This document shows positions 4,443 to 29,691 of a stretch of 64,000 nucleotides of DNA, in pieces. How positions within the stretch are numbered: the first letter of the stretch is position 1; every line of letters begins with the position of its first letter. Position numbers and translations under genes: made by a program. This stretch comes from Thalassobellus citreus (lineage in GTDB: Bacteria; Bacteroidota; Bacteroidia; Flavobacteriales; Flavobacteriaceae): assembly GCF_044385915.1 (NCBI RefSeq), contig NZ_JBISCC010000113.1, positions 12,152-76,151 of the forward strand, written 5' to 3'. A model generated the notes under the pieces. It did not search any database and was not told where the DNA came from. It saw only the letters and a list, made by a program, of their open reading frames with translations.

Positions 4443-5060
4443 ATGGGTTTAAAAGAGAGGTTTTATCAAGTGCTTAGTTGTTGGATTGACAATGAAACTT
4501 TTATTGGGCAACAATGGGAAGAATTATCTGAAAAATACACACAATCTTTTAGAAAATACCATAATCTAAATCATCTACAAGAACTCTTCAAGTATTTTGA
4601 TGCGTATAAGAATGAATTAGAACACCCTAATGAGATGGCTTTCTCCATTTTCTATCATGATATTATTTATAGTATTTGGAGTAAGAAGAACGAATTGAAT
4701 AGCGCTAAATTGGCTACTGAGTATTTGTTGAATTCTGCTTTAGATGATAGTGGTATCGAGCGTGTTTTTAACCTAATTATGGTAACCAAAAACCATACGC
4801 CCAATAAAAATAAGGATGAAAAATGGATGATAGATTTTGACATTGGCATTCTTGGTCAACCATACGAAACTTATTTACAATATACACAGCATATCAGAGA
4901 TGAATATGCTGCTATTCCTAACTCCGTGTATAAAAAAGGCAGAAAAAAGGTATTGAGTCATTTTTTAAATAAAAGTAAAATATACCAAACGGATACCTTT
5001 TATAATTTATTTGAAATGAATGCTAGAAATAATATTAAAAAAGAACTTGACACCCTGTAA
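4443..5060 (+). CDS. HD-superfamily metal-dependent phosphohydrolase (COG4339-like)
   Basis: YHNLNHLQEL and FYHDIIY blocks typical of small HD proteins. The stop overlaps the start of the WYL gene (TAATG). Confidence 0.45.
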   Translation: MGLKERFYQVLSCWIDNETFIGQQWEELSEKYTQSFRKYHNLNHLQELFKYFDAYKNELEHPNEMAFSIFYHDIIYSIWSKKNELNSAKLATEYLLNSALDDSGIERVFNLIMVTKNHTPNKNKDEKWMIDFDIGILGQPYETYLQYTQHIRDEYAAIPNSVYKKGRKKVLSHFLNKSKIYQTDTFYNLFEMNARNNIKKELDTL

Positions 5061-6082
5061 TGGCATTAAATAAAAACGCATTAATACGTTATAAAACGAT
5101 AGATAAATGTCTACAAAACCATTACAAACAATGGACTTTAGATGATTTAATTGAAGCTTGTTCTGATGTTCTATATGAATATGAGGGAAGGGAGATTAAT
5201 GTTAGTAAACGCACTGTACAATTAGACATTCAAATGATGCGCAGCGATAAGCTTGGTTATAATGCTCCTATAATTGTTTATAATAAGAAGTTTTACAAAT
5301 ATGAAAATGAAGGTTATTCTATAACTGATATTCCTTTGAACGAAAATGACATGAATGTTCTTTCGGAAACTGTTGAGATGCTAAAACAGTTTAAAGATTT
5401 TTCTCTTTTTTCTGAATTAGGAGGCATTATACAGCGTTTGGAAGACAAGGTTTATACTGAAAAGACTCACCAGTCTGCCATCATTCATTTGGATAGGAAT
5501 GAAAAACTAAAGGGCTTGGAACATTTAGATATTTTATACCAGGCTATTATTAAAAAGATGGTTCTTAGGATTAGATACCAATCTTATAAGGCTAGAGAAG
5601 CTTCTGAAATTATTTTTCACCCTTTCATTTTAAAAGAATTTAATAATCGTTGGTTTTTAATAGGGAGACCAGGAGTAGAGGCGAAAAAGTCAATCGTTAC
5701 TTTTGCTTTAGATAGAATAGTTTCTATTGATTATGATACAACAATCACATACAAAAATGACAACTTCAATGGTGATAAATATTATAAAGATGTTATTGGG
5801 GTTACTGTTTCAAATATCCGCGCTGAACGCATCCAGTTTTGGGTTGACAAGAAAAATGCTCCGTATGTAATGACTAAGCCTTTTCACGATTCGCAAAGGG
5901 TCATAAAACAAACTGATGATGGTGTTATCTTCAATATTTTTGTGCAAATTAATTTTGAACTTGAGCGTATGATTTTAGGTTTTGGAGATTCTATTGAGGT
6001 TTTAAAGCCTAAAAAACTTAGGGGTAGGATGCAGCAAAAATTGGAAAAGGCTGCTGGTTTTTATCTGAAAGACCAGACTTAA
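5060..6082 (+). CDS. HTH-WYL-WCX transcriptional regulator (WYL-1)
   Basis: N-terminal wHTH. WYL-like core YQSYKAR..FHPFILKEFNNRWFLIGR. Paralog of the N-terminal 330 aa of ORF 37194..38915. Sits beside the RNA-repair operon. Confidence 0.7.
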   Translation: MALNKNALIRYKTIDKCLQNHYKQWTLDDLIEACSDVLYEYEGREINVSKRTVQLDIQMMRSDKLGYNAPIIVYNKKFYKYENEGYSITDIPLNENDMNVLSETVEMLKQFKDFSLFSELGGIIQRLEDKVYTEKTHQSAIIHLDRNEKLKGLEHLDILYQAIIKKMVLRIRYQSYKAREASEIIFHPFILKEFNNRWFLIGRPGVEAKKSIVTFALDRIVSIDYDTTITYKNDNFNGDKYYKDVIGVTVSNIRAERIQFWVDKKNAPYVMTKPFHDSQRVIKQTDDGVIFNIFVQINFELERMILGFGDSIEVLKPKKLRGRMQQKLEKAAGFYLKDQT

Positions 6083-6104: not shown

Positions 6105-6746
6105 TTAAAATACATTTATTTTCAATCGTTCACAAACACTTTTATCAATTGGAAGGTAAGGACGTTCTTGAGGAATCATCAATTTATCTAATTCATTATT
6201 AAGAACATGTTGATACTGTTCGTTTACAAATCCTGAAATATCTTCAATTTCTAATATATCTTCTTTAGCATATTTCTCGATATCTTGATTTCTAATTCCA
6301 AGTTGAATAGCTCTTCTATCCAATTTCGCACCATAAGGGTCATGATCTGGATCCCATTGTAATCGGATATTTGATTTTTTTACGGCATTTTGCCAATCTT
6401 CTCTATCCTTATATATACCATCTTGATAACTTGAATACACAGCATCATTTAAATAACGTTCAAATACTTCACGTTTTAAATGAATAGCCAATACAACTTC
6501 TTGACCTTCTTTTGTCCCCCACCCATTACGATACATCATCCATAGGAAATTTGGTTTTATCCAAGTCATTCTATTCAGGCTAAAAGCGCCTCCAAAAAAC
6601 TGATTCTTTGCTGCAAATTGACCTATTTCTAGCCTATAAGATTGATATACGATTACTTTTTCCTCATCAAACTGCGCCATAATATGGCGTCCTGTTTCTG
6701 GCCATTCTTTTAATTGCTCTTTATATAATTTTGTTATTAGTTTCAT
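6105..6746 (-). CDS. Conserved hypothetical protein, DUF4291-like. Last gene of the ADP-ribose operon.
   Basis: RMTWIKPNFLWMMYRNGW block. Overlaps the ARH gene. Confidence 0.4.
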   Translation of the reverse strand: MKLITKLYKEQLKEWPETGRHIMAQFDEEKVIVYQSYRLEIGQFAAKNQFFGGAFSLNRMTWIKPNFLWMMYRNGWGTKEGQEVVLAIHLKREVFERYLNDAVYSSYQDGIYKDREDWQNAVKKSNIRLQWDPDHDPYGAKLDRRAIQLGIRNQDIEKYAKEDILEIEDISGFVNEQYQHVLNNELDKLMIPQERPYLPIDKSVCERLKINVF

Positions 6747-7689
6747 TTTTTAATGATTTATTAAATTTTAAAATTAAACCTTCAATATCCTTTCGTCTTA
6801 CTACCTTGTCTCTCCATTCCATTGGGATACTATCCAATCCATAATAAATCCCTGCTAATCCTCCAGTAATTGCAGCTGTAGTATCAGTATCCTCTCCAAG
6901 ATTTACAGCACTAATAACAGCATCTTCATAAGTATTTGTGTTCATAAAACACCAAAGTGATGCCTTTAAAGAATTCACAACATACCCACTTCCAGAAATA
7001 CGCTTTTCATCAATTTTATAAATATCTTCTTGAAGTACATCAAAATAGAACCCTAGTTCTTTTGGGTTTAAATCTTTGGTCTCCAAAAAAGCATTTACTT
7101 TATCTTTAATTACGTGATATGCTTTAATTTTATCACTACTGTTTAACAATTCTAAGCCATATTCCACATAGATAAAACAGGCTAATACTGATCGTAAATG
7201 AGCATGAGTTAAAGATGAAACGTCCTTAATTATTTGATAGCGTTCTTCAATATTATCAGTATTTTTAAGAAAAAAAACGAGTGGTAATATTCGCATTAAA
7301 GAACCATTGCCATTTGAATACTCGTCCATACCTCCACAAATCTCAGGTGTATGCCCTTCTTTCATATAAAATATAGACTGCCTTGTTGTTACACCAATAT
7401 CAAAGACTACTCCATGCGGTGTCCAATAAGATTCATCATACCATGCGATAAATTTATCAGCAATATTTTTCGTGTTAAAACCATCTAATAAGCCTTCCAT
7501 TAAACAGAATGTTAGAGAACTATCATCTGACCAAGTCCCTACAGGTTGTCTATGAGTTCCATACCCAACCATCGTTTCGGCTGGATTCCTTTTCATTTCA
7601 TCTTTAGACAAAAATTCAAAAGGTACCCCTAATGCATCTCCAACTGCCACTCCCATAATTCCACTTCGTATTTTTTCTAACAAACTCAT
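6721..7689 (-). CDS. ADP-ribosylglycohydrolase (ARH/DraG family)
   Basis: N-terminal GVAVGDALGVPFEF motif. Length 322 aa. Confidence 0.8.
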   Translation of the reverse strand: MSLLEKIRSGIMGVAVGDALGVPFEFLSKDEMKRNPAETMVGYGTHRQPVGTWSDDSSLTFCLMEGLLDGFNTKNIADKFIAWYDESYWTPHGVVFDIGVTTRQSIFYMKEGHTPEICGGMDEYSNGNGSLMRILPLVFFLKNTDNIEERYQIIKDVSSLTHAHLRSVLACFIYVEYGLELLNSSDKIKAYHVIKDKVNAFLETKDLNPKELGFYFDVLQEDIYKIDEKRISGSGYVVNSLKASLWCFMNTNTYEDAVISAVNLGEDTDTTAAITGGLAGIYYGLDSIPMEWRDKVVRRKDIEGLILKFNKSLKNETNNKII

Positions 7690-8108
7690 GCTTTCTTTAC
7701 TTCAGCTTTTTCAATAATTTCATTTATAACCTTGTCATTTGATCTTTGAAATTGGTTTCCTAAAAAGGTCTTTGTTACCTCTATTTTTCCCTCTATCTGA
7801 TTATTGAATAATTCCATTTCTTCTGAAGGCACCCATAATTCATTATGAATTTCACCACCTACATTTCTAACTTCAAACTTTTTAATGTACTCCGTATTCA
7901 CTTTGAATGCAGTGACAAAACCAGAATATCCAGAAAACTCATCTCCTGTATTCCATTTTAAAGCAATTTCAGAAGCATAATCTTCATTCATCACAGGATA
8001 AAAGATAGGCTGCCAATTTAACCTTGGTGGAAATTTAGAAAAACCACTTTCAATTATAAGTTCTAATTCTTTCAACCCAATCGGCCTATATAATATTATT
8101 GTTTTCAT
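7686..8108 (-). CDS. Hypothetical protein in the ADP-ribose operon
   Basis: ORF translationally coupled to both neighbours by 4-nt overlaps. No recognised motif. Confidence 0.45.
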
Positions 8109-8617
8109 TGTTTTAATAATTTATCATACAACTCATAATTCTCCAGATCAAAACAAACAAAAGAAACTTCTTCAACTGTCTTTTGATTTTTAAAATTTTT
8201 AATAGTATCAATCGCTATTTGAGCTGCTAAATCTTTTGGGAATTTGTAAATCCCCGTACTTATATTTGGAAATGCAATACTTCTAACATTGTTTTCAATT
8301 GCTAAGATCATTGTGTTTTTATAACAATCACTTAAAAGCTTTTCTTTTTCACCTCCTCCTTGATTCCAAACTGGGCCAACTGTGTGAATTACAGATCTAG
8401 CATCTAAGTTTCCCGCTGTTGTTATAACTGCTTCTCCAACATTACATTTTCCTTGCTTGGCTCTAATTTCTTGACAGGCTTTCAGGATTTCTACACCTCC
8501 TTTTCTATGAATAACACCATCAACTCCTGAACCACCTAACAATGAAGAGTTCGCTGCATTCACGATAGCATCAACTTTTATTGATGTTATATCTGATTGT
8601 ATGACTCTTATTTCCAT
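8105..8617 (-). CDS. Macro domain protein (YmdB/MacroD-like O-acetyl-ADP-ribose deacetylase)
   Basis: [27 protein letters not shown] macro signature. Confidence 0.85.
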
Positions 8618-8620
8618 TTT

Positions 8621-9097
8621 TTATTCAAAATCGTAAACATAAACCTCTAGATCACCATTTGATAAGGTTTCAAGTATTATAGGTTCTATTTCTTCCCATT
8701 TCCCACCTGCTAAACCACAGCCAATTCTTGGCATATGAATACTTGCACTTAGTTTTTTTGCTTCAATTGCGATTTCACTTAAACAAGACTTAACCGCATC
8801 ATATCTAATTGGTGCTATTTTATTTACTCGTTTTAATCCTTTCTGAGCAACCATATTTCCAACAAAAACATCTTCAGACACTTGAATTAACTGGGTAGCT
8901 CCTAAAGCAAAATTATTATCAGCTTTATTTTTATACCACTGTCTATATGCCTTTTCAGGCTCTGGCCATTTCTTTGAAATTGCTAATACAAATCCTTTAC
9001 CCCAACCACCCAAATCATTACAGATATGGACAATTATTTTGTTTCCTTCAACTTGTGGAGCCGTAGCATCTCCTTTTAAATATGTTATAGTTTTCAT
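8621..9097 (-). CDS. Second, divergent macro-like domain protein
   Basis: IIVHICNDLGGWGKGFV and HMPRIGCGLAGGKWEE blocks resemble phage-type macro domains. Confidence 0.5.
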   Translation of the reverse strand: MKTITYLKGDATAPQVEGNKIIVHICNDLGGWGKGFVLAISKKWPEPEKAYRQWYKNKADNNFALGATQLIQVSEDVFVGNMVAQKGLKRVNKIAPIRYDAVKSCLSEIAIEAKKLSASIHMPRIGCGLAGGKWEEIEPIILETLSNGDLEVYVYDFE

Positions 9098-9098
9098 T

Positions 9099-10022
9099 TT
9101 ATATTATCAAATTTGCTTTCTCGTCTGCAATACCTATTTCAACATAGCTTCCAGAATTGAAATTTAAAAAATCAGATTCTATACCATCACTAAAAATAAC
9201 ACCTTTTGATGGCATATTAGATTCAACTTTTAATGTTTGTTTTTTTGTTATTATTCCAAAACCTATACTCGCTTGAGTAACCTTGCTTAAAAAAGGTTCC
9301 CTAACTACAAATACAAGTTTTTCATCTTCCCAACGGATTAATGATTGTTCACTTCTTTCTTTGTTAGATTGAATTTTATTAATATTATTCGCCATATTAA
9401 ATATAGAACTTAACCAACCAGTAGCGCCTGCACCAGTAGAAATTATAATTCCACTAGACGAATGCTTTTCTCTTTTACCTTTAAATTCAATATCATATCT
9501 TGAAGAAACATGAGAGTCTGCCCCTATATAAAAATCATTAAAGGCTAATAAGGTTTGTCCATCATTTAATTGCGCTTTTGCCATGGTAACCTGCTTAGTT
9601 TTATAATCTCCTTTAAGAACATTTTTAATAACAACATCTAATTCATCTGAGGTATGCTTTAATAAAACACCATCATAACGTTCTTTATCTGGATTTACAC
9701 CTATAATAGACAAACCTTTAACGTACTTAGCTGTATTTGCAACCAATCCATCTTGCCCAATAACCACTATTAAATCCTTCTCTGTAAAAATATATGTTGG
9801 TAAAAACGAACGATTAATAACTTTATACTTTAATTGCTTCGAAATAGTGTCTTGAATTTTAGACAATGATTTATAAAACGTATCATTTTCAAGCTCATAG
9901 TATCCAAAATCTCCTTCAGATTTTTCAATATAAAACTTGGCTTGAGCTTTTGAGTTAAACCTTTCTATTAGTAACTCTAGCCTTGTTTTGTCTCTTATTA
10001 TGATGACTCTTTCAAACTCCAT
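9099..10022 (-). CDS. NAD kinase-like (ATP-NAD kinase / DAGK fold) protein
   Basis: VVIGQDGLV..IIGVN (GGDG-like) and ISTGAGATGWLSS (NADK TPTGSTAYS-like) blocks. Confidence 0.5.
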   Translation of the reverse strand: MEFERVIIIRDKTRLELLIERFNSKAQAKFYIEKSEGDFGYYELENDTFYKSLSKIQDTISKQLKYKVINRSFLPTYIFTEKDLIVVIGQDGLVANTAKYVKGLSIIGVNPDKERYDGVLLKHTSDELDVVIKNVLKGDYKTKQVTMAKAQLNDGQTLLAFNDFYIGADSHVSSRYDIEFKGKREKHSSSGIIISTGAGATGWLSSIFNMANNINKIQSNKERSEQSLIRWEDEKLVFVVREPFLSKVTQASIGFGIITKKQTLKVESNMPSKGVIFSDGIESDFLNFNSGSYVEIGIADEKANLII

Positions 10023-10027
10023 TTTAT

Positions 10028-11083
10028 TTATGATTTACTTCTTACAATAGAATCTAATAATTCTGGAGAAATATTTAAATTACCTATTTTATCTGCATTT
10101 TCAGCTAGTTCTCTAAAAGCTAAAGCGATATTATTACTTGGGTCATTTCCATTATTACTTATAGCCATGAGCGTTTTCCAATCCAATTCTTTATATGGTT
10201 TTAAATTCGCATTTAGAACATATTCTTTCACATCTGCTTCTTTCTTCTCATTAGTTACTTGAATATCGATAAGCTCTTTTTTCTGTTCCTCAAGAGAAAT
10301 ACTAGAAGTCATTTCCATTTGTTTTAACTTCTGAACATTCTGCTGCTTAACAACATCTGTTTCCATTTTCTTTTCAACGATTTGTTTTTGCTTTTCCTCA
10401 ACAGCAATCTCTGTATTCAATTCACTTTCCTTAATCATACGTTCTTGCTCTACAGCAAAATTTCTACGTTCATAAACAGCTTGATCGGCTTCCTTTTGAA
10501 GAGATTCTCGCATATGAGTTTCTAAAGCACGAGCCATTTCTGGATTAGGTGTAACCCCAAGCACATTAACGCTTAATATTTCTAACCCAAGCATTTGAAC
10601 AGTCTTTGATTTTTGAACATTATTAAAAATCTCTGCCTCAATATCTTCTAACCTCCTCAAAGCTTCCTTCAAACTTAAACACTGAATAATAGATGCACTA
10701 GCAGTTTGAGCTTCATTGATTATTCGTTGCTGAATTTTTTCGTAATCATGTTTCAAATACTGTTTCTTATTATTTACAGTAAAATCTAAAGCTTCAGCAA
10801 GTTGCTTTGGGTTTTCAATCTTATAAGTGACTTGTCCTTGTAAAGTAACTTCTTGATAATCTTTTGTCGTTTCATTGAATACAAATTGAAAATCATTACT
10901 CTGAACTGGAATAGAAACAATTGATGAATTTGGAGAAAAATAAAAGAATGATAAACCTCTGCCTTCTTTCTTGATTTTCCCACCTTTATAATGAATAACG
11001 TAATTCATTGAGTCGAATTTGATATAATTTATTCCTAACATAACTTTGAGTTTTAAATTAGTATTTGCGTAATTATAACACAA
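10028..11083 (-). CDS. SPFH/band-7 domain protein (copy 1) with coiled-coil C-terminus. Likely true start at 11041.
   Basis: MLGINYIKF..HYKGGKIKKEGRGLSFFYF SPFH N-terminus. Long Glu/Lys/Gln-rich helix. Confidence 0.65.
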   Translation of the reverse strand: MCYNYANTNLKLKVMLGINYIKFDSMNYVIHYKGGKIKKEGRGLSFFYFSPNSSIVSIPVQSNDFQFVFNETTKDYQEVTLQGQVTYKIENPKQLAEALDFTVNNKKQYLKHDYEKIQQRIINEAQTASASIIQCLSLKEALRRLEDIEAEIFNNVQKSKTVQMLGLEILSVNVLGVTPNPEMARALETHMRESLQKEADQAVYERRNFAVEQERMIKESELNTEIAVEEKQKQIVEKKMETDVVKQQNVQKLKQMEMTSSISLEEQKKELIDIQVTNEKKEADVKEYVLNANLKPYKELDWKTLMAISNNGNDPSNNIALAFRELAENADKIGNLNISPELLDSIVRSKS

Positions 11084-11165
11084 ATGTAAATAGGAATATT
11101 AAATTCACCAAATATGTTTTGTGTTTTTTTTACGCAAATATATTATTAATCTAATATTCAATAAG

Positions 11166-11843
11166 TTATATTTCAAAAATTATCCCTTCCTTTTTAAGTT
11201 GGAAGTAGCGTTTTTGGTTAAATTGGAATAAATTGGCTGGTCTTCCCGAACCTTTTGATACTTTTTCGTCGAGTTCATCAAGTACATTAAGGCCAATGAT
11301 TTTCTTTCTAAAATTGCGCCTGTCAATTTCTCTGCCTAATAGGGTAGTGTATAATTTTTCTAAATCTGAAAAAGGGAATTTCTTATCGAGTAATTCAAAA
11401 CCAATAGGTTCATAAGTGATTTTTCCTTGTAACCTCTTAATGGCTATTTCAAGGATCTCTTGATGATCAAAAGAGAGTTCTTGTAATTCATCAATATTAA
11501 ACCATTGTACTTCAGCTGCATCAGTAGAAGCAAATATTTTAAATGTGTTCGGTCTTATTAGTCCAAAATAAGCTATAGAAACAACTCTTCCTCTTGGATC
11601 TCTATATGGATTTCCAAAGGTATATAATTGCTCAAGGTAATTAATCTTTACTCCTGTTTCTTCTTGTAATTCTCTCTGAACTGCTTCTTCTAAGGATTCA
11701 TCATTTAATACAAATCCACCTGGGATAGCCCATTTATCTTTGAACGGTTCATACTTTCGTTTTATAAGTAATACTGATATTTTGCCCTCTTCGTAACCAA
11801 ACACGACGGCATCAACGGATAGTTTAATGGATTGATTATTCAT
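11166..11843 (-). CDS. NrtR-like regulator: Nudix hydrolase domain plus C-terminal winged helix
   Basis: Nudix box GGFVLNDESLEEAVQRELQEETGV. C-terminal NFRKKIIGL..GSGRPANLFQF resembles the NrtR DNA-binding domain. Length 225 aa. Confidence 0.6.
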   Translation of the reverse strand: MNNQSIKLSVDAVVFGYEEGKISVLLIKRKYEPFKDKWAIPGGFVLNDESLEEAVQRELQEETGVKINYLEQLYTFGNPYRDPRGRVVSIAYFGLIRPNTFKIFASTDAAEVQWFNIDELQELSFDHQEILEIAIKRLQGKITYEPIGFELLDKKFPFSDLEKLYTTLLGREIDRRNFRKKIIGLNVLDELDEKVSKGSGRPANLFQFNQKRYFQLKKEGIIFEI

Positions 11844-11845
11844 AT

Positions 11846-11862
11846 GCGTAATTTATACGCAA
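11846..11862. promoter_or_regulatory. Palindrome TGCGTA-N5-TACGCA abutting the NrtR-like gene start
   Basis: tgcgtaatttatacgca. It shares the TACGCAAAA half-site with the four-copy cassette but in everted orientation. Confidence 0.35.
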
Positions 11863-11878
11863 AAATACAAAATTTAAC

Positions 11879-14821
11879 TTAAACCATTTTTGTAATAATA
11901 GATTTAAGTGTATTTGTTTCCTTCCATTTTAAGAGTTTTTCCTTAGTAAAAGGATTGATTTCTATTTCTGGGAAATTATACTTTAATTCCAAAAACACTT
12001 CTAACAACTTCTTTGTTCCCCTAATAGGCACATCATTCATATTATGAATCATAAGATCTAAAAGTTTGAATAAAAATTTATTGTGCATTTTAGAAACATT
12101 AAAAAGGTTTGCTGTCAGAAGATCAGTAAACCTTTTAAGCGGTGCATATTCTCCCCATTCTAATCTACCTATAATTTCACCCAATAGTGAATTATTCACT
12201 TTCTCTTCAGAGTTAGCTTTAATCCATATTTCTGCTGCAAGCTCTCTAGCCACTTTATCACTACATAAAAGTCCAGTAGCCAAAAACATATAAGTTGTTT
12301 CTTTATAATCTGCACGATGCCATATTTCATAGAGGCCTTTGAGTAAATTGATCATGTTCTTTTTACTGCTTTCATCAAAAAAAGTAGATTCTTTTAAGTT
12401 GTTATAAATAACATTACTTAAAAACATACTCGGATTATTAGGCGATAGAAACAAGAATTTCACATCATCATGAGGCTGAATAGTAGTATAATATTTCTCC
12501 TTTTTGAAATACATATATTCATAAATACTAACAACATTTTCTTGCTTTTTCTTATTATTGAAAAGATTTTTAATATCAGAGATTAAAGAATCTGGTTCTT
12601 TTTTCTTTTCACCAAATTTTTTGAAACGCAATTCTTTACGGGTCATTGTTTTTAAAACATCTTTCTTAAGAGCATAATCGTATTGTTTATATTTTTCTTC
12701 TCTTAATTTGCAATCCCATGAATAAACCCCTCTTTCTTTTTGTAATGTATTTGATAACTGTTCTTGAAAGTAAGTTATCTCCGAATTTTTATTTCTGCTA
12801 ATAACACTCTGAATCCATAAGTCTGGTCTATCAGTATAAGTCTTTTCAAGTTCAATTAAACCATAATGATACTTTAGAATGTTTTTAATTTTTTTAGTAT
12901 TTATTTCATCTATTTTTTGTGATACATCTTTGGGGAACTCATCTAACGGTAAACGTCCAAAAGCAATTTGCATATCATATAGATTTATTTCCTCATCACT
13001 TTTTTCATATGATATGATTCGATCAATTAAAACCACAGGATCAACCCAGCAAGGTGCGTGCGTTGGTGTAGATAATAAATCTAAAGTCAAACCTCTTTTG
13101 ATGAAGGATTTAGATTTTATAAATAAGAAATGATGTATTTGATATATATAATCTGGAATAGTTTGATGCTCTATTTCTTTTAGATTTTCCTTATACCGTG
13201 ATTTATAAAATCGGTCTTCTTTAAGTTTCTTGATTTTTTGATCCTTAGTTTTTCTGAAGCTTTGAAGTTCAGCAGGGTATTTCTTCATTAATATCTCTGC
13301 GAAGTCATTAATATAATAAGCAGCTTCAGACTCAAGACTTCCAATTTGACTATTCCAGCCATCAAAATTCATCGAAAGATCTAGAGAACGCTTAAAAATA
13401 GGCTCTAGCTTTGAAACATTATCTTTATTTAAAAGCAGGTTCAGCTTTGGCAAATAACTCAAAAGCAAATCTATATGATAAACTTCATTGTTATCAATAA
13501 CCTGACTTACAAAAAAGATTAGATCATCTAGTGTTTCATAGGTAGGTAGTTTGTTTTCTTCAGTCAATAACTTTGACTCTTCAACGTCAAAAACATGATC
13601 TTCAGCTTCTTCTTCTGAAGTTATATAACTCTTTAAGGTTTCTTTCGAAGAGTGAAACAAACTATCAGTGTATAAACTAATTTCATCCAACAGTTCTTGC
13701 TTCTTTGGGTCTCCATGCTTTTCAATAATTTTTGCAGCCCTTAATTGTATTTTCTCATCAACTGTAATTAATGCTTCTGAAGCTTTTTTACAAACCGAGA
13801 TTCTAGAAGCTTTATGAGCTTTAACAATCTTATCCAAAATCATAAGTGTGGAGTTAACTACAGACTTTGTTTCAGAATTCAATTGAATCGAGCTATTTTC
13901 AATAAAGACTTTGTATTTAAACTTTTTATGATCTGCTACAGTTTTAAAATATTTTAATACCGTATTCACAACTTTTGAGTGAGGCGAATTTAGGGCAGCA
14001 AAAAACTCATTCTGTAAACTTAAAATCTCTTCTATAGTAGGAGTTAGTTTAATTAACAGGTCAAAAAACCATCCGCTCAATGTTTTATTAAATCCCTTAG
14101 TGGCTGAACATATAGTCGCTATTAAAACCTTTTTTCTGTTTAGTTTATCATCATTGGTTAAATTAGAAATCGTATCAATCCAAATATCATTACCTCCCTT
14201 ATAATTTTCTAGATGTAAATAGTTATAATAATTGTTGATACCTGATTCTTCTTCAAACAAAAACCAAATATGCTCATCTAAAGTTTCTTTGTGCTTAAAT
14301 AAAACTTCAGGTTTGTAAAAACTTCTATTTTTATTATTCTCCCATTTACTTTCAACTATTGCGTTTGGTAGTCTCGCTAGTATTAATTCATGAGATGGCT
14401 GCAACAAACCTTTTTTGAATAATGTCATCGTCTTTTCGTAATCCAACTCCCAAGGCATGTCTTCATTAATTAAATCACCAAACCATTTAGGAGTATACCA
14501 AGGGATTATGTTTTCTAAATAATCATCAGTAACGGAAAGTTGGCTGACGCTGAAAAAGGCTTTTTTTGCATCTGTTTTGTTAAAACACACATAGCACACT
14601 TTACTAATAATATTTCTTTTAGTTTCAGAATGTATAGGTTTTGAAGTATCATAGGTTCCCCAATCTGATTTCTCTCTAACCATTCGGTGCTCAAAAATCT
14701 TTTCTTTATACTTTTTTAAAAAGGGAACAAGTTCTCTTTTTTCCTTTAGAGTGAGTTTTTTTAAAAAAGGGATTACATCTTTTTCTTTGAAGACAATGTC
14801 TTCTAATTCTTTTTCAAGCAT
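11879..14821 (-). CDS. Large (980 aa) alpha-helical protein of unknown function, possibly DUF4132-like
   Basis: Long ORF with 2-nt spacing to the upstream SWIM gene. No catalytic motif recognised. Confidence 0.55.
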   Translation of the reverse strand: MLEKELEDIVFKEKDVIPFLKKLTLKEKRELVPFLKKYKEKIFEHRMVREKSDWGTYDTSKPIHSETKRNIISKVCYVCFNKTDAKKAFFSVSQLSVTDDYLENIIPWYTPKWFGDLINEDMPWELDYEKTMTLFKKGLLQPSHELILARLPNAIVESKWENNKNRSFYKPEVLFKHKETLDEHIWFLFEEESGINNYYNYLHLENYKGGNDIWIDTISNLTNDDKLNRKKVLIATICSATKGFNKTLSGWFFDLLIKLTPTIEEILSLQNEFFAALNSPHSKVVNTVLKYFKTVADHKKFKYKVFIENSSIQLNSETKSVVNSTLMILDKIVKAHKASRISVCKKASEALITVDEKIQLRAAKIIEKHGDPKKQELLDEISLYTDSLFHSSKETLKSYITSEEEAEDHVFDVEESKLLTEENKLPTYETLDDLIFFVSQVIDNNEVYHIDLLLSYLPKLNLLLNKDNVSKLEPIFKRSLDLSMNFDGWNSQIGSLESEAAYYINDFAEILMKKYPAELQSFRKTKDQKIKKLKEDRFYKSRYKENLKEIEHQTIPDYIYQIHHFLFIKSKSFIKRGLTLDLLSTPTHAPCWVDPVVLIDRIISYEKSDEEINLYDMQIAFGRLPLDEFPKDVSQKIDEINTKKIKNILKYHYGLIELEKTYTDRPDLWIQSVISRNKNSEITYFQEQLSNTLQKERGVYSWDCKLREEKYKQYDYALKKDVLKTMTRKELRFKKFGEKKKEPDSLISDIKNLFNNKKKQENVVSIYEYMYFKKEKYYTTIQPHDDVKFLFLSPNNPSMFLSNVIYNNLKESTFFDESSKKNMINLLKGLYEIWHRADYKETTYMFLATGLLCSDKVARELAAEIWIKANSEEKVNNSLLGEIIGRLEWGEYAPLKRFTDLLTANLFNVSKMHNKFLFKLLDLMIHNMNDVPIRGTKKLLEVFLELKYNFPEIEINPFTKEKLLKWKETNTLKSIITKMV

Positions 14822-14822
14822 A

Positions 14823-16169
14823 TTAATTGGCTTTTGCTTTTTTCTTTACGGCTAAAATATGTTTGCATGCGCCTCGTTCACCTTGATTTTTACTAAACCA
14901 AGTACAAGTACATTTTTGCAAGTCACCTTTTATAACCACATAATGTTGTACTCCACTTCCTTCTACTTTTGCTTCTATTTCATTATCATTCTTTAGAGTG
15001 ATATTTACCTTATTATCTTCTAATAGTTTTTCAGCACCTTTTAATCTTGGATTTAATGACATTATCCTATCTAGTTTGAAAGGCAACCTTCTATAAAAGA
15101 ATCCGTTCTTAGCTAAATCATAACCCAATAGTCCCATCGCTGATAATTTGGTTGATAGTTTTTCTATTTTAGAAATATCTATTCCTTCTTCAAATGACAT
15201 TAGAGCGGGGTTGAATTCTTGATTTGTAAAAGAGTAATTATCAAACGCTTGAATCAACGAATCTGGTAAGTCTTCTATCAAAGATTCTAGCGCTGCTCCC
15301 TCTCCTGAAAAGCCTCTCCAAAAATCTCTGGAAATCGAAAAGACAAAGTTCAATTCGTCAAAACATAAAATAAAAGTCACGGATTGCATGTCTTTTTGTG
15401 GATACACTTTTAATTCATTGATTAACGGAATTAACGGCTGAAGTAATTTTAATCTATGAATTCCACCAATACAAACAGCATTATTAGCTTTTAGAGGGCT
15501 AAACAAATACTTGCTACCTCTTTTAATTAAAAAATAATCCGTTTTAACTTTTCCATTTGGAATAGTCTTAAATAGCTGAATTGCTTGAATACGATTTAAG
15601 GTTTGTGCATAATCTGATTCTGAAAAGAAATGTTGTACTGTTGTGAGTCCTTTTATCCATTTGCTTGGTAAAGGCACTTTTCTTTCAATGAAACTCTCTC
15701 CTCCTTTATGAAAACCTACTTCTTTCTGCCCCACAGACAAAATGAGATCATCATTTTTTTTGATTTTGCCTAATTCAGAAATTAAAGGGGTATTAAAATC
15801 TACATTGGTTGTACCATTTTCTATAAACTCTCCATCCTGTCCGTTGTCTAAAACATCAACTCTAGCGTATACACCTGCACAATGTGAAAAGCCTTCAAAT
15901 CTTATTTGATTATTACCAGCAGTAACTATAGGATCTTTTAATAAGGCTAATTGAAAAGGTGATAAATTAAAACTAGATTGAACTGTATTAGAAAGCGTAA
16001 TCAAACATCTTGAAAGTTCATATGGGTTATTTAGTTTCCCCCAGAAAAAGCAAGGAGAGCTCCCTTTGTCAACTTCATTAAACTTTGATAATAATAAATT
16101 CTCTTTTCCTTGTTCTTTTTTAATACTCGAAAGGGAGTTGTATTTATAATTTAAAGTTTCTGCTGACAT
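14823..16169 (-). CDS. SWIM zinc-finger domain protein
   Basis: C-terminal CTCTWFSKNQGERGACKHILAV (CxC-xn-CxH SWIM). Confidence 0.65.
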   Translation of the reverse strand: MSAETLNYKYNSLSSIKKEQGKENLLLSKFNEVDKGSSPCFFWGKLNNPYELSRCLITLSNTVQSSFNLSPFQLALLKDPIVTAGNNQIRFEGFSHCAGVYARVDVLDNGQDGEFIENGTTNVDFNTPLISELGKIKKNDDLILSVGQKEVGFHKGGESFIERKVPLPSKWIKGLTTVQHFFSESDYAQTLNRIQAIQLFKTIPNGKVKTDYFLIKRGSKYLFSPLKANNAVCIGGIHRLKLLQPLIPLINELKVYPQKDMQSVTFILCFDELNFVFSISRDFWRGFSGEGAALESLIEDLPDSLIQAFDNYSFTNQEFNPALMSFEEGIDISKIEKLSTKLSAMGLLGYDLAKNGFFYRRLPFKLDRIMSLNPRLKGAEKLLEDNKVNITLKNDNEIEAKVEGSGVQHYVVIKGDLQKCTCTWFSKNQGERGACKHILAVKKKAKAN

Positions 16170-16448
16170 ACTTTTTGTTTTTAAAAATAGTAAAAAAAAT
16201 CTGCCAACTAAATTATAGATAGAAAGTTTTAAAATAAATTATTGATGTTTAAGTATAACAGAAAAGATCCATGTCCGTAATTGGGGTTTTTGACACTTAA
16301 ACGTTAAAAATTAATAAGTTTAACAACTAAATGGATTCAATTCATATAAAATGAAAATAAATTTAATTAAGTTGGTTTTTGCGTGCAAATCGCGTGCAAA
16401 TTAAAAAAGCTTTAAAAGATAAAATCTTCTAAAGCCTTACTATTACTG

Positions 16449-16522
16449 TGGAGAAGATCGGATTCGAACCGACGACCTCTTGACTGCCAGTCAAGCACTC
16501 TAGCCAACTGAGCTACATCCCC
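16449..16522 (-). tRNA. tRNA-Ala(GGC)
   Basis: Reverse complement GGGGATGTAGCTCAGTTGGCTAGAGTGCTTGACTGGCAGTCAAGAGGTCGTCGGTTCGAATCCGATCTTCTCCA. G3:U70 Ala identity pair, anticodon loop CTGGCAG, T-loop GGTTCGAATCC. One U6:U67 mismatch. A terminator hairpin follows. Confidence 0.8.
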
Positions 16523-19528: not shown

Positions 19529-20188
19529 TTATCTGGTTTTTAACCAACCCGTAATACTCATTCTTTTAGTATTTACTGGCTTTACTTCATGTTCAATTAT
19601 TTGGCTTTCAAAAATCACCATTCTTCCAGGAAACGGATAAATAACTTTTTCTGTTTCCTGTCCGTTTTTATTTAAATACAACACTAATTCACCACCATTT
19701 TCTGGTAGCCAACCTTCTTCATTTAAATAACATACAAACGATAATTTACGTCTATCATCATTTTGAAAGGTGTCAATATGTTTTTTGTAATAAGTACCTT
19801 TTGGGTATAAAGCATAATGAAACTCCTTATATAAAATTCCTAAAAAACAGGTTTTATTTAAATAAGCAACCAAGTCATTCATCTTATTAAAAAATAAAGA
19901 TTCTTTATGGCATGCCTTTGTTTCATCCATCCATAAAATCAAATCACCTCGTATCGATCTTTCAATAGTTGCATTCAACTTACTACCAATAGCCGCTTTT
20001 TTAAAAGCATCTTCCTCATACTTTTCTAAAAGAGAGTGTCTTAATATAGCCACTTCTTCTAAAGAAAAAAAGGATTCAACAATACTATATTGCTGCCTAG
20101 CAAGCTCAGAAATTATTTGTTCGTAAAGAGGGTTTTCAACAAAATCAATAGATTCAAATAGATGACTCATAAGCGTAGCGTAAATCAT
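19529..20188 (-). CDS. Fe(II)/2-oxoglutarate dioxygenase, PKHD/YbiX-like hydroxylase
   Basis: HIDTF (HxD) with distal His in IIEHEV. Length 219 aa. Confidence 0.65.
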   Translation of the reverse strand: MIYATLMSHLFESIDFVENPLYEQIISELARQQYSIVESFFSLEEVAILRHSLLEKYEEDAFKKAAIGSKLNATIERSIRGDLILWMDETKACHKESLFFNKMNDLVAYLNKTCFLGILYKEFHYALYPKGTYYKKHIDTFQNDDRRKLSFVCYLNEEGWLPENGGELVLYLNKNGQETEKVIYPFPGRMVIFESQIIEHEVKPVNTKRMSITGWLKTR

Positions 20189-20886: not shown

Positions 20887-21639
20887 ATGCAAATTCCAAA
20901 AGGAAAAAAAATATATTTCGCTTCAGATAACCATTTAGGAGCTCCTACACAAGAAGCTTCTCGTCCGCGCGAAAAAAAATTCGTAGCATGGTTAGACGAA
21001 ATAAAGCATGATGCAGCTGCCATTTTCCTTCTAGGCGATTTATTCGATTTTTGGTTCGAATACAAAACAGTTGTTCCAAAAGGATTCACCAGAACCTTAG
21101 GTAAACTTGCCGAAATATCAGATTCTGGAATTCCAATTCACTATTTTGTTGGCAACCACGATTTATGGATGAACGGCTATTTTGAAGAAGAACTAAACAT
21201 TCCTGTTTACCACAAACCCAAAGAGTTTACTTTTAACGATAAAACATTTTTCATAGGTCATGGCGACGGTTTAGGTCCTGGCGACAAAGGCTATAAACGC
21301 ATGAAAAAGGTATTTATTAGTCCGTTTTTTAAATGGCTTTTTAAATGGGGACACCCAGATATTGGTATGCGTATCGCACAATATTTATCAGTTAAAAACA
21401 AATTGATTTCTGGTGACGATGATGCTAAATTTCTTGGTGAAGAAAACGAATGGTTAGCCATTTACTGTAAACGAAAACTTGAAGAAAAACATCGTGATTA
21501 TTTTGTGTTTGGTCACCGTCATTTACCACTAGAAATGAATCTAAACGACAATTCAAAATACATCAATCTAGGCGATTGGATTCAATATTACACCTATGGC
21601 ACTTTTGATGGTGAACATTTTGAGTTAAAAAAACATTAA
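20887..21639 (+). CDS. lpxH: UDP-2,3-diacylglucosamine diphosphatase (LpxH-like calcineurin phosphoesterase)
   Basis: YFASDNHLG, LLGDLFDFW and GNHD metallophosphatase motifs. Confidence 0.65.
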   Translation: MQIPKGKKIYFASDNHLGAPTQEASRPREKKFVAWLDEIKHDAAAIFLLGDLFDFWFEYKTVVPKGFTRTLGKLAEISDSGIPIHYFVGNHDLWMNGYFEEELNIPVYHKPKEFTFNDKTFFIGHGDGLGPGDKGYKRMKKVFISPFFKWLFKWGHPDIGMRIAQYLSVKNKLISGDDDAKFLGEENEWLAIYCKRKLEEKHRDYFVFGHRHLPLEMNLNDNSKYINLGDWIQYYTYGTFDGEHFELKKH

Positions 21640-29583: not shown

Positions 29584-29691
29584 TATTTATAAAATTTAAA
29601 ATTAATGCTAATTAGGCTTTTGATTTTTAATAAATTTGCGTCACCTTTATACAAACGAATAATCGCTTTGTTTTAGTGCTAAAATTACAAA

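Follow-up and report, generated by a model that had tools for sequence, protein, structure and literature searches.

A putative ADP-ribose-responsive NrtR regulon combining ADP-ribosyltransferase-fold proteins with ADP-ribose hydrolases in Thalassobellus citreus and other Bacteroidota

Nucleic-acid ADP-ribosylation, together with its reversal, forms a fast-moving field in which most of the known bacterial writers are toxins. RhsP2, a toxin of the Pseudomonas aeruginosa type VI secretion system (T6SS) that ADP-ribosylates RNA at the 2'-OH (PDB 7RT7), stands alone in its R-Y-E triad, whose R and E are 86 residues apart (PMC12340436). On the erasing side, ARG-centric systems regulated by Nudix or WYL proteins have been suggested as a means of opposing ADP-ribosylation by viruses (Iyer et al., 2022, PMC9503650, section 3.8); this class has no linked ADP-ribosyltransferase (ART) or sirtuin, evolves rapidly and was described from actinobacteria, planctomycetes and proteobacteria (PMC9503650). 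NAD-dependent RNA repair centred on KptA/Tpt1, with Macro, 2H and NADAR proteins, has been set out by de Souza and Aravind (2012), as cited in PMC9503650. NrtR repressors bind operators described as a 21-bp palindrome with a GT-N7-AC core that overlaps promoters (Rodionov et al., 2008, PMC2330246), a published example being 'Cytophaga hutchinsonii nrtR-#prs-nadV' (PMC2330246). Here we analyse an operon encoded in a 64,000-nucleotide stretch of Thalassobellus citreus DNA (contig NZ_JBISCC010000113.1, positions 12,152 to 76,151; the window, in whose own positions all window coordinates are given), in which an NrtR-type regulator is followed by macrodomain proteins, an ADP-ribosylglycohydrolase (ARH) and two proteins of predicted ART fold, ART140 and DUF4291.

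From nrtR to DUF4291 the window holds eight genes that represent a pared-down copy of an NrtR regulon found throughout Bacteroidota, a trimmed variant with two RhsP2-like folds, three hydrolases and a cassette of an SPFH and a NAD-kinase-like (NADK-like) gene. On balance, we favour the view that this regulon is self-contained and ADP-ribose-inducible, and that it pairs NAD-consuming ART-fold proteins with clean-up hydrolases.

The operon and its NrtR control

Ten minus-strand open reading frames (ORFs) exactly span positions 6105-16169, as stated in the original prediction, which was made from the letters alone and treated all ten as one operon for ADP-ribose and NAD processing. That description fits the stretch from nrtR to DUF4291, which lies under an NrtR-type regulator with operators; the two genes upstream of nrtR, encoding a SWIM zinc-finger protein and a DUF6493 protein, are separate. 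The features of the nrtR-DUF4291 block, in gene order, are:

11844..11862, unstranded: NrtR operator O1, one mismatch (motif scan)
11166..11843, minus strand: NrtR-type regulator, nrtR (Pfam, N-terminal NUDIX, residues 9-129, 1.1e-22; C-terminal NrtR_WHD, residues 148-208, 8e-23)
11119..11137, unstranded: NrtR operator O2, perfect (motif scan)
11065..11083, unstranded: NrtR operator O3, perfect (motif scan)
10028..11041 (start revised), minus strand: SPFH/Band_7 protein (Pfam Band_7 1.2e-20)
9099..10022, minus strand: NADK-like, a divergent protein of NAD-kinase/diacylglycerol-kinase fold, 307 aa (weak NCBIfam and PDB matches)
8621..9097, minus strand: Macro1, an ALC1/TARG1-like macrodomain of the SCO6735/Bt_1257 subclass (PDB 5e3b, 2fg1)
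8105..8617, minus strand: Macro2, a MacroD/YmdB-type macrodomain (Pfam Macro 2.7e-46)
7686..8108, minus strand: ART140, a 140-aa protein of predicted ART fold (predicted structure)
6721..7689, minus strand: ADP-ribosylglycohydrolase, ARH/DraG/Tri1-like (Pfam ADP_ribosyl_GH 2.1e-72)
6105..6746, minus strand: DUF4291, a predicted atypical ART-fold protein (Pfam DUF4291, PF14124, 1.4e-66)

From the SWIM gene to Macro2, successive genes are separated by 1, 35, 82 (124 with the revised SPFH start), 5, 1 and 3 nt. The 4-nt overlaps claimed earlier are found at Macro2/ART140 and ART140/ARH, and ARH and DUF4291 overlap by 26 nt. Profile searches (Pfam, NCBIfam, PADLOC) bore out the assignments of the SWIM, NrtR-like Nudix, SPFH, ARH and DUF4291 proteins and of two different macrodomains. 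Three of the window proteins (the 140-aa, NADK-like and DUF4291 proteins) are 100% identical to database entries of Thalassobellus citreus. For comparison, 80 loci (cited below by L numbers, as are some loci anchored on other genes) were taken from species-representative genomes, anchored on the 140-aa protein and spanning Flavobacteriia, Chitinophagia, Sphingobacteriia, Cytophagia and Bacteroidia; a relative is present in no fewer than 586 species.

The window regulator scored 164.7 bits on the NCBIfam NtrR model (NF050029), below its 400-bit equivalog cut-off, and is thus a member of the family rather than that equivalog. A palindrome search of nrtR flanks yielded the operator TTG[CT]GT-N7-AC[AG]CAA, which fits the reported GT-N7-AC core and 21-bp symmetry. 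Perfect copies numbered 121 in 1.56 Mb of related loci, compared to 0.33 in shuffles. With up to one mismatch allowed, 194 sites were spread over 63 of 81 loci, nearly all of them just upstream of nrtR, prs, NADAR, nadV, SPFH or the small gene c20. The Bacteroidetes -7 promoter box has the consensus TAnnTTTG, and such a box was formed by 110 of the 194 sites on the operon strand as compared to 12 on the opposite strand. A general sigma-70 promoter scan was uninformative (53 found, 59.9 expected).

All three window operators overlap such boxes. O1 sits in the 35-bp gap between DUF6493 and nrtR, where it covers the TATTTTTG -7 box and the nrtR ATG and therefore represents an autoregulatory site; its position relative to nrtR recurs in L002, L003, L014, L030 and L040. 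O2 overlaps the TATATTTG -7 box, and O3, 54 bp from O2, overlaps the TACATTTG -7 box 24 nt upstream of the probable start of SPFH, which is most likely the ATG at 11041 and not the TTG at 11083. A tandem pair like O2/O3 also precedes SPFH in L002, L003, L087 and L089, while L088 has the proximal site only. Two further operator-like sites with one mismatch were seen in the window. One lies inside the ARH gene (6936-6954), 190 nt upstream of the DUF4291 start, and may be an internal operator or a chance occurrence. The other (29636-29654) gives rise to a TAAATTTG box that sits some 40 nt upstream of a thymidine kinase-alanine racemase gene pair; given these genes, we rejected it as a further regulon member and regard it as probably fortuitous.

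ADP-ribose was the best in-vitro anti-repressor of two NrtRs, from Synechocystis and Shewanella (PMC2330246), and by analogy is the likely effector of the window protein. Among NrtRs, an intact Nudix signature correlates with ADP-ribose pyrophosphatase activity (PMC2330246). The Nudix box of the window protein, GFVLNDESLEEAVQRELQEETGV, is fully intact, as it is in 50 of 66 orthologues, and hydrolysis of ADP-ribose by this NrtR is therefore probable.

The SPFH and NADK-like genes were paired in 12 of 12 loci, and the latter has at least 7,999 homologues. The earlier assignment of an NAD-kinase-like protein survives as distant kinship at the level of fold: NCBIfam NADK models matched at 4.7e-9, the best reaching 36.2 bits against a 260-bit cut-off, and PDB NADK2 matched at 1.1e-5, while Pfam NAD_kinase gave no match and a GQDG in place of the GGDG motif sets the protein apart from NadK. 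In other genomes this cassette stands alone or with only nrtR (L087, L088, L089). One or two perfect NrtR operators precede it in these three loci (at about 6886-6959), even where no nrtR is adjacent, indicating a regulon member that is controlled in trans.

Predicted transferase folds and their hydrolase partners

The 140-aa protein had been left as an unknown in the original prediction. Its AlphaFold model, with a predicted local distance difference test (pLDDT) score of 93.2, displays the split beta-sheet of the ART fold, and ART140 is confidently predicted to adopt this fold, with RhsP2 as its closest structural relative. Invariant residues include R8 in strand 1, Y37/Y44 and, where strand 5 begins, E90. 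R8, Y37 and E90 are a putative counterpart of the RhsP2 triad, the spacing from R to E being 82 residues in ART140 and 86 in RhsP2. We consider a NAD-consuming transferase the likely, candidate activity of this protein. ART140 has more than 1,200 close homologues that are about 60% identical across the phylum, and an exhaustive search recovered relatives in at least 1,882 representative clusters at 50% identity. The database name of the family, 'ADP-ribosylation/crystallin J1', is that of a hydrolase family and hence a misnomer. Searches of ART140 against Pfam, NCBIfam, PADLOC and PHROG returned no match; PHROGs gave none for six proteins, and a BFVD fold search gave marginal matches only. Two candidate identities were rejected: YarT, since that protein is of the H-Y-E/HYD1 type while ART140 has a strand-1 Arg and no HYD1 match, and a link to pierisin/ScARP.

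For DUF4291, the Pfam match is accompanied by the motifs YQSY (QSY), WIK and AIQ, against the QA[YF], WIK and [AS]IQ proposed for the family, and at least 95% of sequences keep Y34-Q35, W62-I63-K64 and I147-Q148. The family had been predicted by bioinformatics in 2025 to be an atypical ART (PMC12522546). The structural model (pLDDT 95.3) is again a confident ART fold with RhsP2 as the closest structure, and supports that prediction.

Beyond the Bacteroidota, the ART140 family was found in Streptomyces, Rhizobium, Deinococcus (beside NADAR), Eleftheria and phages, and in other proteins the ART140 domain is fused to Macro (in both orders), NADAR or NUDIX. The betaproteobacterium Eleftheria has macro, ART140 and DUF4291 together, and the ART140-DUF4291 adjacency recurs there. 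Homologues with 42-57% identity were present in three uncultured phage genomes of 640-735 kb (LR756501.1, LR756502.1, LR756503.1); at the one phage locus examined (L083, LR756502.1 373925-374227), no recognisable partner of ART140 lay within 8 kb. Nor was a recognisable partner seen within 6-8 kb of the gene in Streptomyces and Rhizobium replicons, and in Chitinophaga it was solitary, with no hydrolase within 10 kb. Such lone genes in Chitinophaga, Streptomyces and Rhizobium speak against an obligate toxin.

The three hydrolases of the window have intact active sites. SCO6735 and Bt_1257 are close homologues of Macro1 (PDB 5e3b, 1.7e-59; 2fg1, 1.9e-56), and Macro1 is placed in their subclass by this similarity and by a Gln that aligns, in the GQHG motif, with the essential Gln85 of SCO6735; the Pfam Macro score of Macro1 is weak (21.6 bits), as is a DarG-like match in PADLOC. 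SCO6735 strips thymidine-linked ADP-ribose from DNA as well as ADP-ribose from protein (PMC9411070), and also removes ADP-ribose from the phosphate ends of RNA (PMC11833690). Macro2 exceeded the 200-bit cut-off of the NCBIfam O-acetyl-ADP-ribose deacetylase model (NF001664) with 220.7 bits. For ARH, the metal ligands D55, D56, D267 and D269 are shared by at least 95% of 73 sequences.

Conservation, proposed mechanism and competing explanations

The earlier expectation that the neighbourhood would be conserved across Bacteroidota was borne out for the ADP-ribose partners, which are kept on the same strand. Same-strand partners were counted by tblastn and by ORF clustering, with two figures given where these methods differ. 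Among the 80 loci, NrtR was present in 66, KptA/Tpt1 in 64, NADAR in 54, ARH in 51/53, a calcineurin-like phosphoesterase in 53, DUF4291 in 48/49, the MacroD-type macrodomain (Macro2) in 47/48, a Prs-like protein in 43, NadV in 36, the SCO6735-type macrodomain (Macro1) in 35, microbial PARG in 28, Sir2 in 27, a 2-oxoglutarate (2OG) oxygenase in 23 and the SPFH and NADK-like pair in 11-12. Later annotation of related loci added DUF2971 and an adenylosuccinate-synthetase-like gene. Gene maps show NrtR first, interior genes shuffled and NadV often last, and the flanks of the block are lineage-specific yet syntenic within genera. The notion of one conserved ten-gene operon is thereby set aside, with SPFH and NADK-like being an optional cassette and the SWIM and DUF6493 genes joining NrtR only in the window and in L002. 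Also contradicted, at the level of fold, is the statement that no ADP-ribosyltransferase is recognised and that the source of the modification would be external: ART140 and DUF4291 are confidently predicted ART folds, and sister operons carry KptA/Tpt1, Sir2 and DUF2971 at the frequencies given or, for the last, in the loci named below.

Within the shuffled interior, certain genes stay together. KptA and the phosphoesterase were adjacent 32 times; ART140 and Macro2 28 times, 23 of these with a gap of at most 10 nt, Macro2 being the commonest immediate neighbour of the ART140 gene; Sir2 and ARH 18 times; DUF4291 and ARH 18 times; and DUF4291 and PARG 13 times. Most of the pairs overlap or lie no more than 10 nt apart. 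The window retains the Macro2-ART140 and ARH-DUF4291 pairs with the overlaps noted above. At its start, DUF4291 shares exactly 26 nt with the gene before it, be this ARH (window, L002) or ART140 (L006, L015, L066), and the 26-nt junction seems to travel with DUF4291 as genes are shuffled. A three-gene set with its own NrtR operator, encoding proteins of 111 aa and 284 aa (no Pfam match for either) and an adenylosuccinate-synthetase-like protein, was seen in NrtR operons of Chryseobacterium and Tenacibaculum (L012, L020, L036, L037, L055, L058, L063, L065, L072, L078 and others). In Chryseobacterium operons, a DUF2971 protein (cluster c68; L033, L037, L042, L077) lies between PARG and Sir2-ARH. 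DUF2971 is predicted to be a DarT/AbiGi-like ART (PMC12522546), and is a further ART-like family within the NrtR regulon.

On this basis we propose the following sequence of events. NrtR would bind its three 19-21-bp palindromic operators over the -7 boxes of nrtR and SPFH and keep the operon repressed. ADP-ribose, as the signature of NAD consumption, would bind the Nudix domain and release NrtR, which probably also hydrolyses this ligand and would so reset the switch. The induced NAD-consuming ART-fold proteins would be paired with hydrolases that strip or process ADP-ribose adducts, ART140 with Macro2 and DUF4291 with ARH, a SCO6735-type macrodomain being present as well. Fuller versions of the regulon add KptA/Tpt1 and the metallophosphoesterase, Sir2 with ARH, NADAR, PARG and DUF2971, as well as Prs and NadV, salvage enzymes that rebuild NAD. 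In those versions, judging from established family chemistry as summarised in PMC9503650, KptA would release ADP-ribose 1''-2'' cyclic phosphate and nicotinamide; the phosphoesterase and the MacroD enzyme would turn the cyclic phosphate into ADP-ribose; the Nudix domain would cleave this to AMP and ribose-5-phosphate; and Prs and NadV would bring the products back to NMN. Nucleic-acid ends or RNA are the candidate substrates favoured by association. KptA lends the wider regulon an RNA-repair flavour, which the window copy lacks.

Several observations weigh against this proposal. The link of ART140 and DUF4291 to ARTs is one of fold: PDB searches with single sequences and with profiles found no ART, hhalign gave ART140 and KptA a probability of 0.1%, and values among the ART140, DUF4291 and KptA profiles did not exceed 1.2%. 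ART140 is acidic throughout, with a median isoelectric point (pI) of 4.99 and a maximum of 6.21 over 69 sequences (a whole-protein charge and not a surface map), as compared to basic values of 8.4-8.7 for KptA, NADAR and Macro1; the median for DUF4291 is 6.37. RhsP2-style electrostatic binding of RNA is therefore doubtful, and the target of ART140 could be a protein or a small molecule. In DUF4291, Gln148 of motif III occupies the usual position of the catalytic Glu, and the corresponding RhsP2 mutant E1576Q is inactive (PMC12340436); DUF4291 may thus be a binder or catalyse other chemistry, rather than being a transferase. The window copy is without KptA, NADAR, phosphoesterase, Prs and NadV, so that the logic of a closed cycle is not visible locally. 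Finally, the 35-bp gap between DUF6493 and nrtR holds no terminator, making co-transcription of SWIM-DUF6493 with nrtR possible.

The acidity of ART140 and the missing catalytic Glu of DUF4291 would both suit an alternative that we hold to be unlikely, namely that the operon only erases. In such a counter-defence, which follows the view of the original prediction and resembles the ARG-centric systems, it would strip ADP-ribose that phage ARTs or competitor toxins have placed on protein, DNA or RNA of the host, with the ART-fold proteins serving as inactive readers, decoys or adaptors. The gathering of hydrolase classes of differing known specificity (MacroD-type, SCO6735-type and ARH, with NADAR and PARG in relatives) fits this well, as NADAR, PARG and macrodomains reverse toxin-made ADP-ribosylation of RNA and DNA, PARG protects against RhsP2 (PMC11833690), and published ARG-centric systems are headed by NrtR or WYL regulators (PMC9503650). 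However, that published class is defined by having no coupled ART or sirtuin (PMC9503650), whereas ART140 keeps its invariant R/Y/E and KptA, Sir2 and DUF2971 are frequent members. The proteins evolve slowly, at about 60% identity across the classes of the phylum, and the loci are syntenic within genera rather than island-like, which argues against a classical mobile defence island; moreover, co-regulated NAD salvage genes imply that the operon itself uses NAD stoichiometrically. A system with its own transferase-fold proteins as likely writers, with erasers and with recycling is thus the likely arrangement, rather than an eraser-only shield.

The salvage genes have also to be weighed in their own right. 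We give somewhat less credence to the idea that the operon serves nothing but soluble metabolites, processing ADPr-1''-phosphate, Appr>p, O-acetyl-ADPr and ADPr made by KptA, Sir2 or NADases and channelling carbon and nicotinamide back into NAD, with small molecules as the substrates of ART140 and DUF4291, for instance in an NAD+ phosphorylase-like reaction in the manner of RES/MbcT. KptA, phosphoesterase, MacroD, Nudix, Prs and NadV do make up a chemically closed loop that co-occurs under one repressor, the Nudix box of NrtR is intact, the acidity of ART140 suits a small-molecule substrate, and NrtR classically regulates NAD metabolism (PMC2330246). Yet the window keeps macrodomains, ARH and both ART-fold genes while lacking KptA, Sir2, phosphoesterase, Prs and NadV, and characterised relatives of ARH (PMC9503650) and of the SCO6735-type macrodomain (PMC9411070) act on macromolecular adducts. 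Very improbable, in our judgement, is a toxin-antitoxin or abortive-infection role, with ART140 and Macro2 (or NADAR) and DUF4291 and ARH (or PARG) as DarT-DarG- or YarT-YbiA-like couples under NrtR: the ART-hydrolase gene pairs are tight and often overlapping, ART140 is fused to Macro or NADAR, the small ART YarT neutralised by an adjacent NADAR sets a precedent (PMC11125620), the closest fold, RhsP2, is a lethal toxin and Macro1 has its weak DarG-like match, but ART140 occurs solitary or partnerless as described above, its sequence is very highly conserved, unlike polymorphic toxins, the identity of the partner varies, the motif is not H-Y-E/HYD1 and matches no Pfam toxin ART, PHROGs gave no match and the setting is not mobile.

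The regulon of ART-fold proteins and hydrolases that we favour also admits a bolder formulation, which we offer tentatively and regard as doubtful in its full extent. ART140 would found a large, hitherto undescribed family of endogenous R-Y-E ADP-ribosyltransferases, fold kin of RhsP2, in Bacteroidota, Actinomycetota, Pseudomonadota, Deinococcota and huge phages, and would, with DUF4291 and the macrodomain, ARH, NADAR and PARG partners, carry out regulated reversible ADP-ribosylation of RNA or another conserved target, switched by ADP-ribose and with NAD salvage built in.

Neighbouring genes and comparison with known systems

On either side of the nrtR-DUF4291 block lie features of other units:

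16448..16522, minus strand: tRNA-Ala (GGC) (Rfam tRNA 65.2 bits; ARAGORN)
16406-16438: terminator-like hairpin with a 15-bp stem, between tRNA-Ala and the SWIM gene
14823..16169, minus strand: SWIM zinc-finger protein, 448 aa (Pfam SWIM 21.4 bits; PADLOC SWIM_XIII 3.1e-54)
11879..14821, minus strand: DUF6493+DUF7824+DUF7825 protein, 980 aa (Pfam 2.3e-68, 3.4e-44, 4e-48)
5060..6082, plus strand: WYL/WCX transcription factor, convergent on DUF4291 and part of the RtcB locus (Pfam WYL 4.1e-12, WCX 3.7e-13)

The SWIM and DUF6493 genes are an autonomous two-gene unit outside the NrtR regulon that lies upstream of it by happenstance. Among the mapped ART140-anchored loci, only the window and Hyunsoonleella (L002) have them ahead of NrtR. 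Of the metagenome loci taken with DUF6493 as anchor, six of six had the SWIM gene directly upstream, and none of five had an ADP-ribose gene downstream. The tRNA-Ala gene and hairpin mark the upstream boundary of this unit, with a Usp gene also on that side; the tRNA was the sole match of an Rfam scan of window positions 1-24000. The stretch 16406-16522 that holds both may be an insertion landmark for the module; the closest relative, L001, lacks this module. In the same loci (window 11879-16169, L090-L096), SWIM proteins were 75-93% identical and their DUF6493 partners 44-69%. The large protein, described as helical in the original prediction, is not DUF4132, a domain named there; Pfam gives the three domains listed instead. 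The SWIM protein, weak in Pfam, is similar to the accessory protein of retron type XIII, where a SWIM protein is partnered by a HEAT/ARM repeat protein (Mestre et al., 2020, PMC7736814). As in that retron, a SWIM-domain protein here accompanies a large partner, the 980-aa protein; in the window, however, the order is SWIM and then the large partner, and this DUF6493/7824/7825 protein has no PADLOC match. With no reverse transcriptase domain among the window neighbours in Pfam and no retron non-coding RNA in the Rfam scan of 1-24000, the module is not assigned to retron XIII.

At the other end, the WYL gene ends at 6082, with the claimed 22-nt spacing to DUF4291. In agreement with the earlier description of this flank, its locus further comprises genes for RlaP, for a nucleotidyltransferase of the CCA-adding type that has an HD domain, for RtcB and for an uncharacterised 205-aa protein. 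The contiguity of this RNA-repair locus with the ADP-ribose operon, to which the original prediction had attached a combined function, is not a general feature: within 10 kb, RtcB was found in three and a WYL homologue in four of the 80 loci. Counting the window, WYL homologues lie near the NrtR operon in 4 of 81 loci (L001, L017, L027 and the window); the tblastn count also lists L066, at 27% identity and in a different cluster. A weak link does recur in the two Bacteroidales loci L017 (472-1500) and L027 (5955-7000): there the WYL gene directly precedes nrtR on its strand, RtcB is absent nearby, and the WYL protein is 52-53% identical to that of the window, which hints that WYL and NrtR may jointly control the ADP-ribose operon in some lineages. 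A 2OG-Fe(II) oxygenase (19529-20188) and a weak calcineurin-like phosphoesterase (20887-21639) are encoded 3-5 kb upstream of the window operon; neither gave a tblastn match at E 1e-3 to the regulon versions in relatives, though both families are regulon members there.

In sum, the operon family is slowly evolving, chromosomally stable and transcriptionally gated, and in it as many as five NAD-consuming folds are placed next to all known classes of ADP-ribose hydrolase and the NAD salvage enzymes. It offers testable handles in its defined operator, its natural writer-eraser gene pairs and a small, soluble-looking ART-fold protein with three catalytic candidates, and it corrects the common database name of the 140-aa family. 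If the bolder formulation given above is true, it would represent a bacterial writer-eraser circuit with NAD salvage, distinct from a toxin or a passive shield. Within the literature searched, and allowing that ART140 or parts of its neighbourhood may have been described earlier, the predicted ART fold of the 140-aa family is new together with its R/Y/E signature, as are the likeness to RhsP2 common to ART140 and DUF4291, the Bacteroidota operator and the way it overlaps promoters, and the SPFH and NADK-like cassette as a member of an NrtR regulon.

With described NrtR regulons (PMC2330246) the operon shares a repressor of Nudix and winged-helix domains, the operator type and, in relatives, prs and nadV as members; it differs in that ADP-ribose transferase-fold and hydrolase genes dominate over NAD biosynthesis, and the window copy is without any biosynthetic or salvage gene and adds the SPFH and NADK-like cassette. 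The associations of KptA-dependent RNA repair recur in that KptA belongs to the same NrtR operon in 64 of 80 loci, usually overlapping the phosphoesterase and accompanied by Macro and NADAR, whereas the window operon has neither KptA nor NADAR nor phosphoesterase. The likeness to RhsP2 consists of the invariant R/Y/E of ART140 at similar spacing, and PARG, known to remove the mark left by RhsP2, often neighbours and overlaps DUF4291 in relatives. In contrast to RhsP2, to which ART140 and DUF4291 have no detectable sequence similarity, ART140 is acidic and by whole-protein charge has no basic RNA-binding face, and in DUF4291 Gln fills the catalytic position; the two are chromosomally encoded, evolve slowly and are regulated, and no Rhs/T6SS context or cognate immunity gene was present in the window or the 80 related loci. 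With the ARG-centric systems the operon has in common an ARH/ARG core with an NrtR-type regulator, in a few loci a WYL gene close by, Macro and NADAR proteins as accessories, a content that varies and accretes and, in relatives of the window operon, a calcineurin-like phosphoesterase. The two ART-fold genes of the operon, and KptA, Sir2 and DUF2971 in its relatives, place the locus outside that class, which is characterised by having no coupled ART; here, two to five ART-fold or sirtuin genes are linked, the sequences evolve slowly and the system belongs to Bacteroidota.

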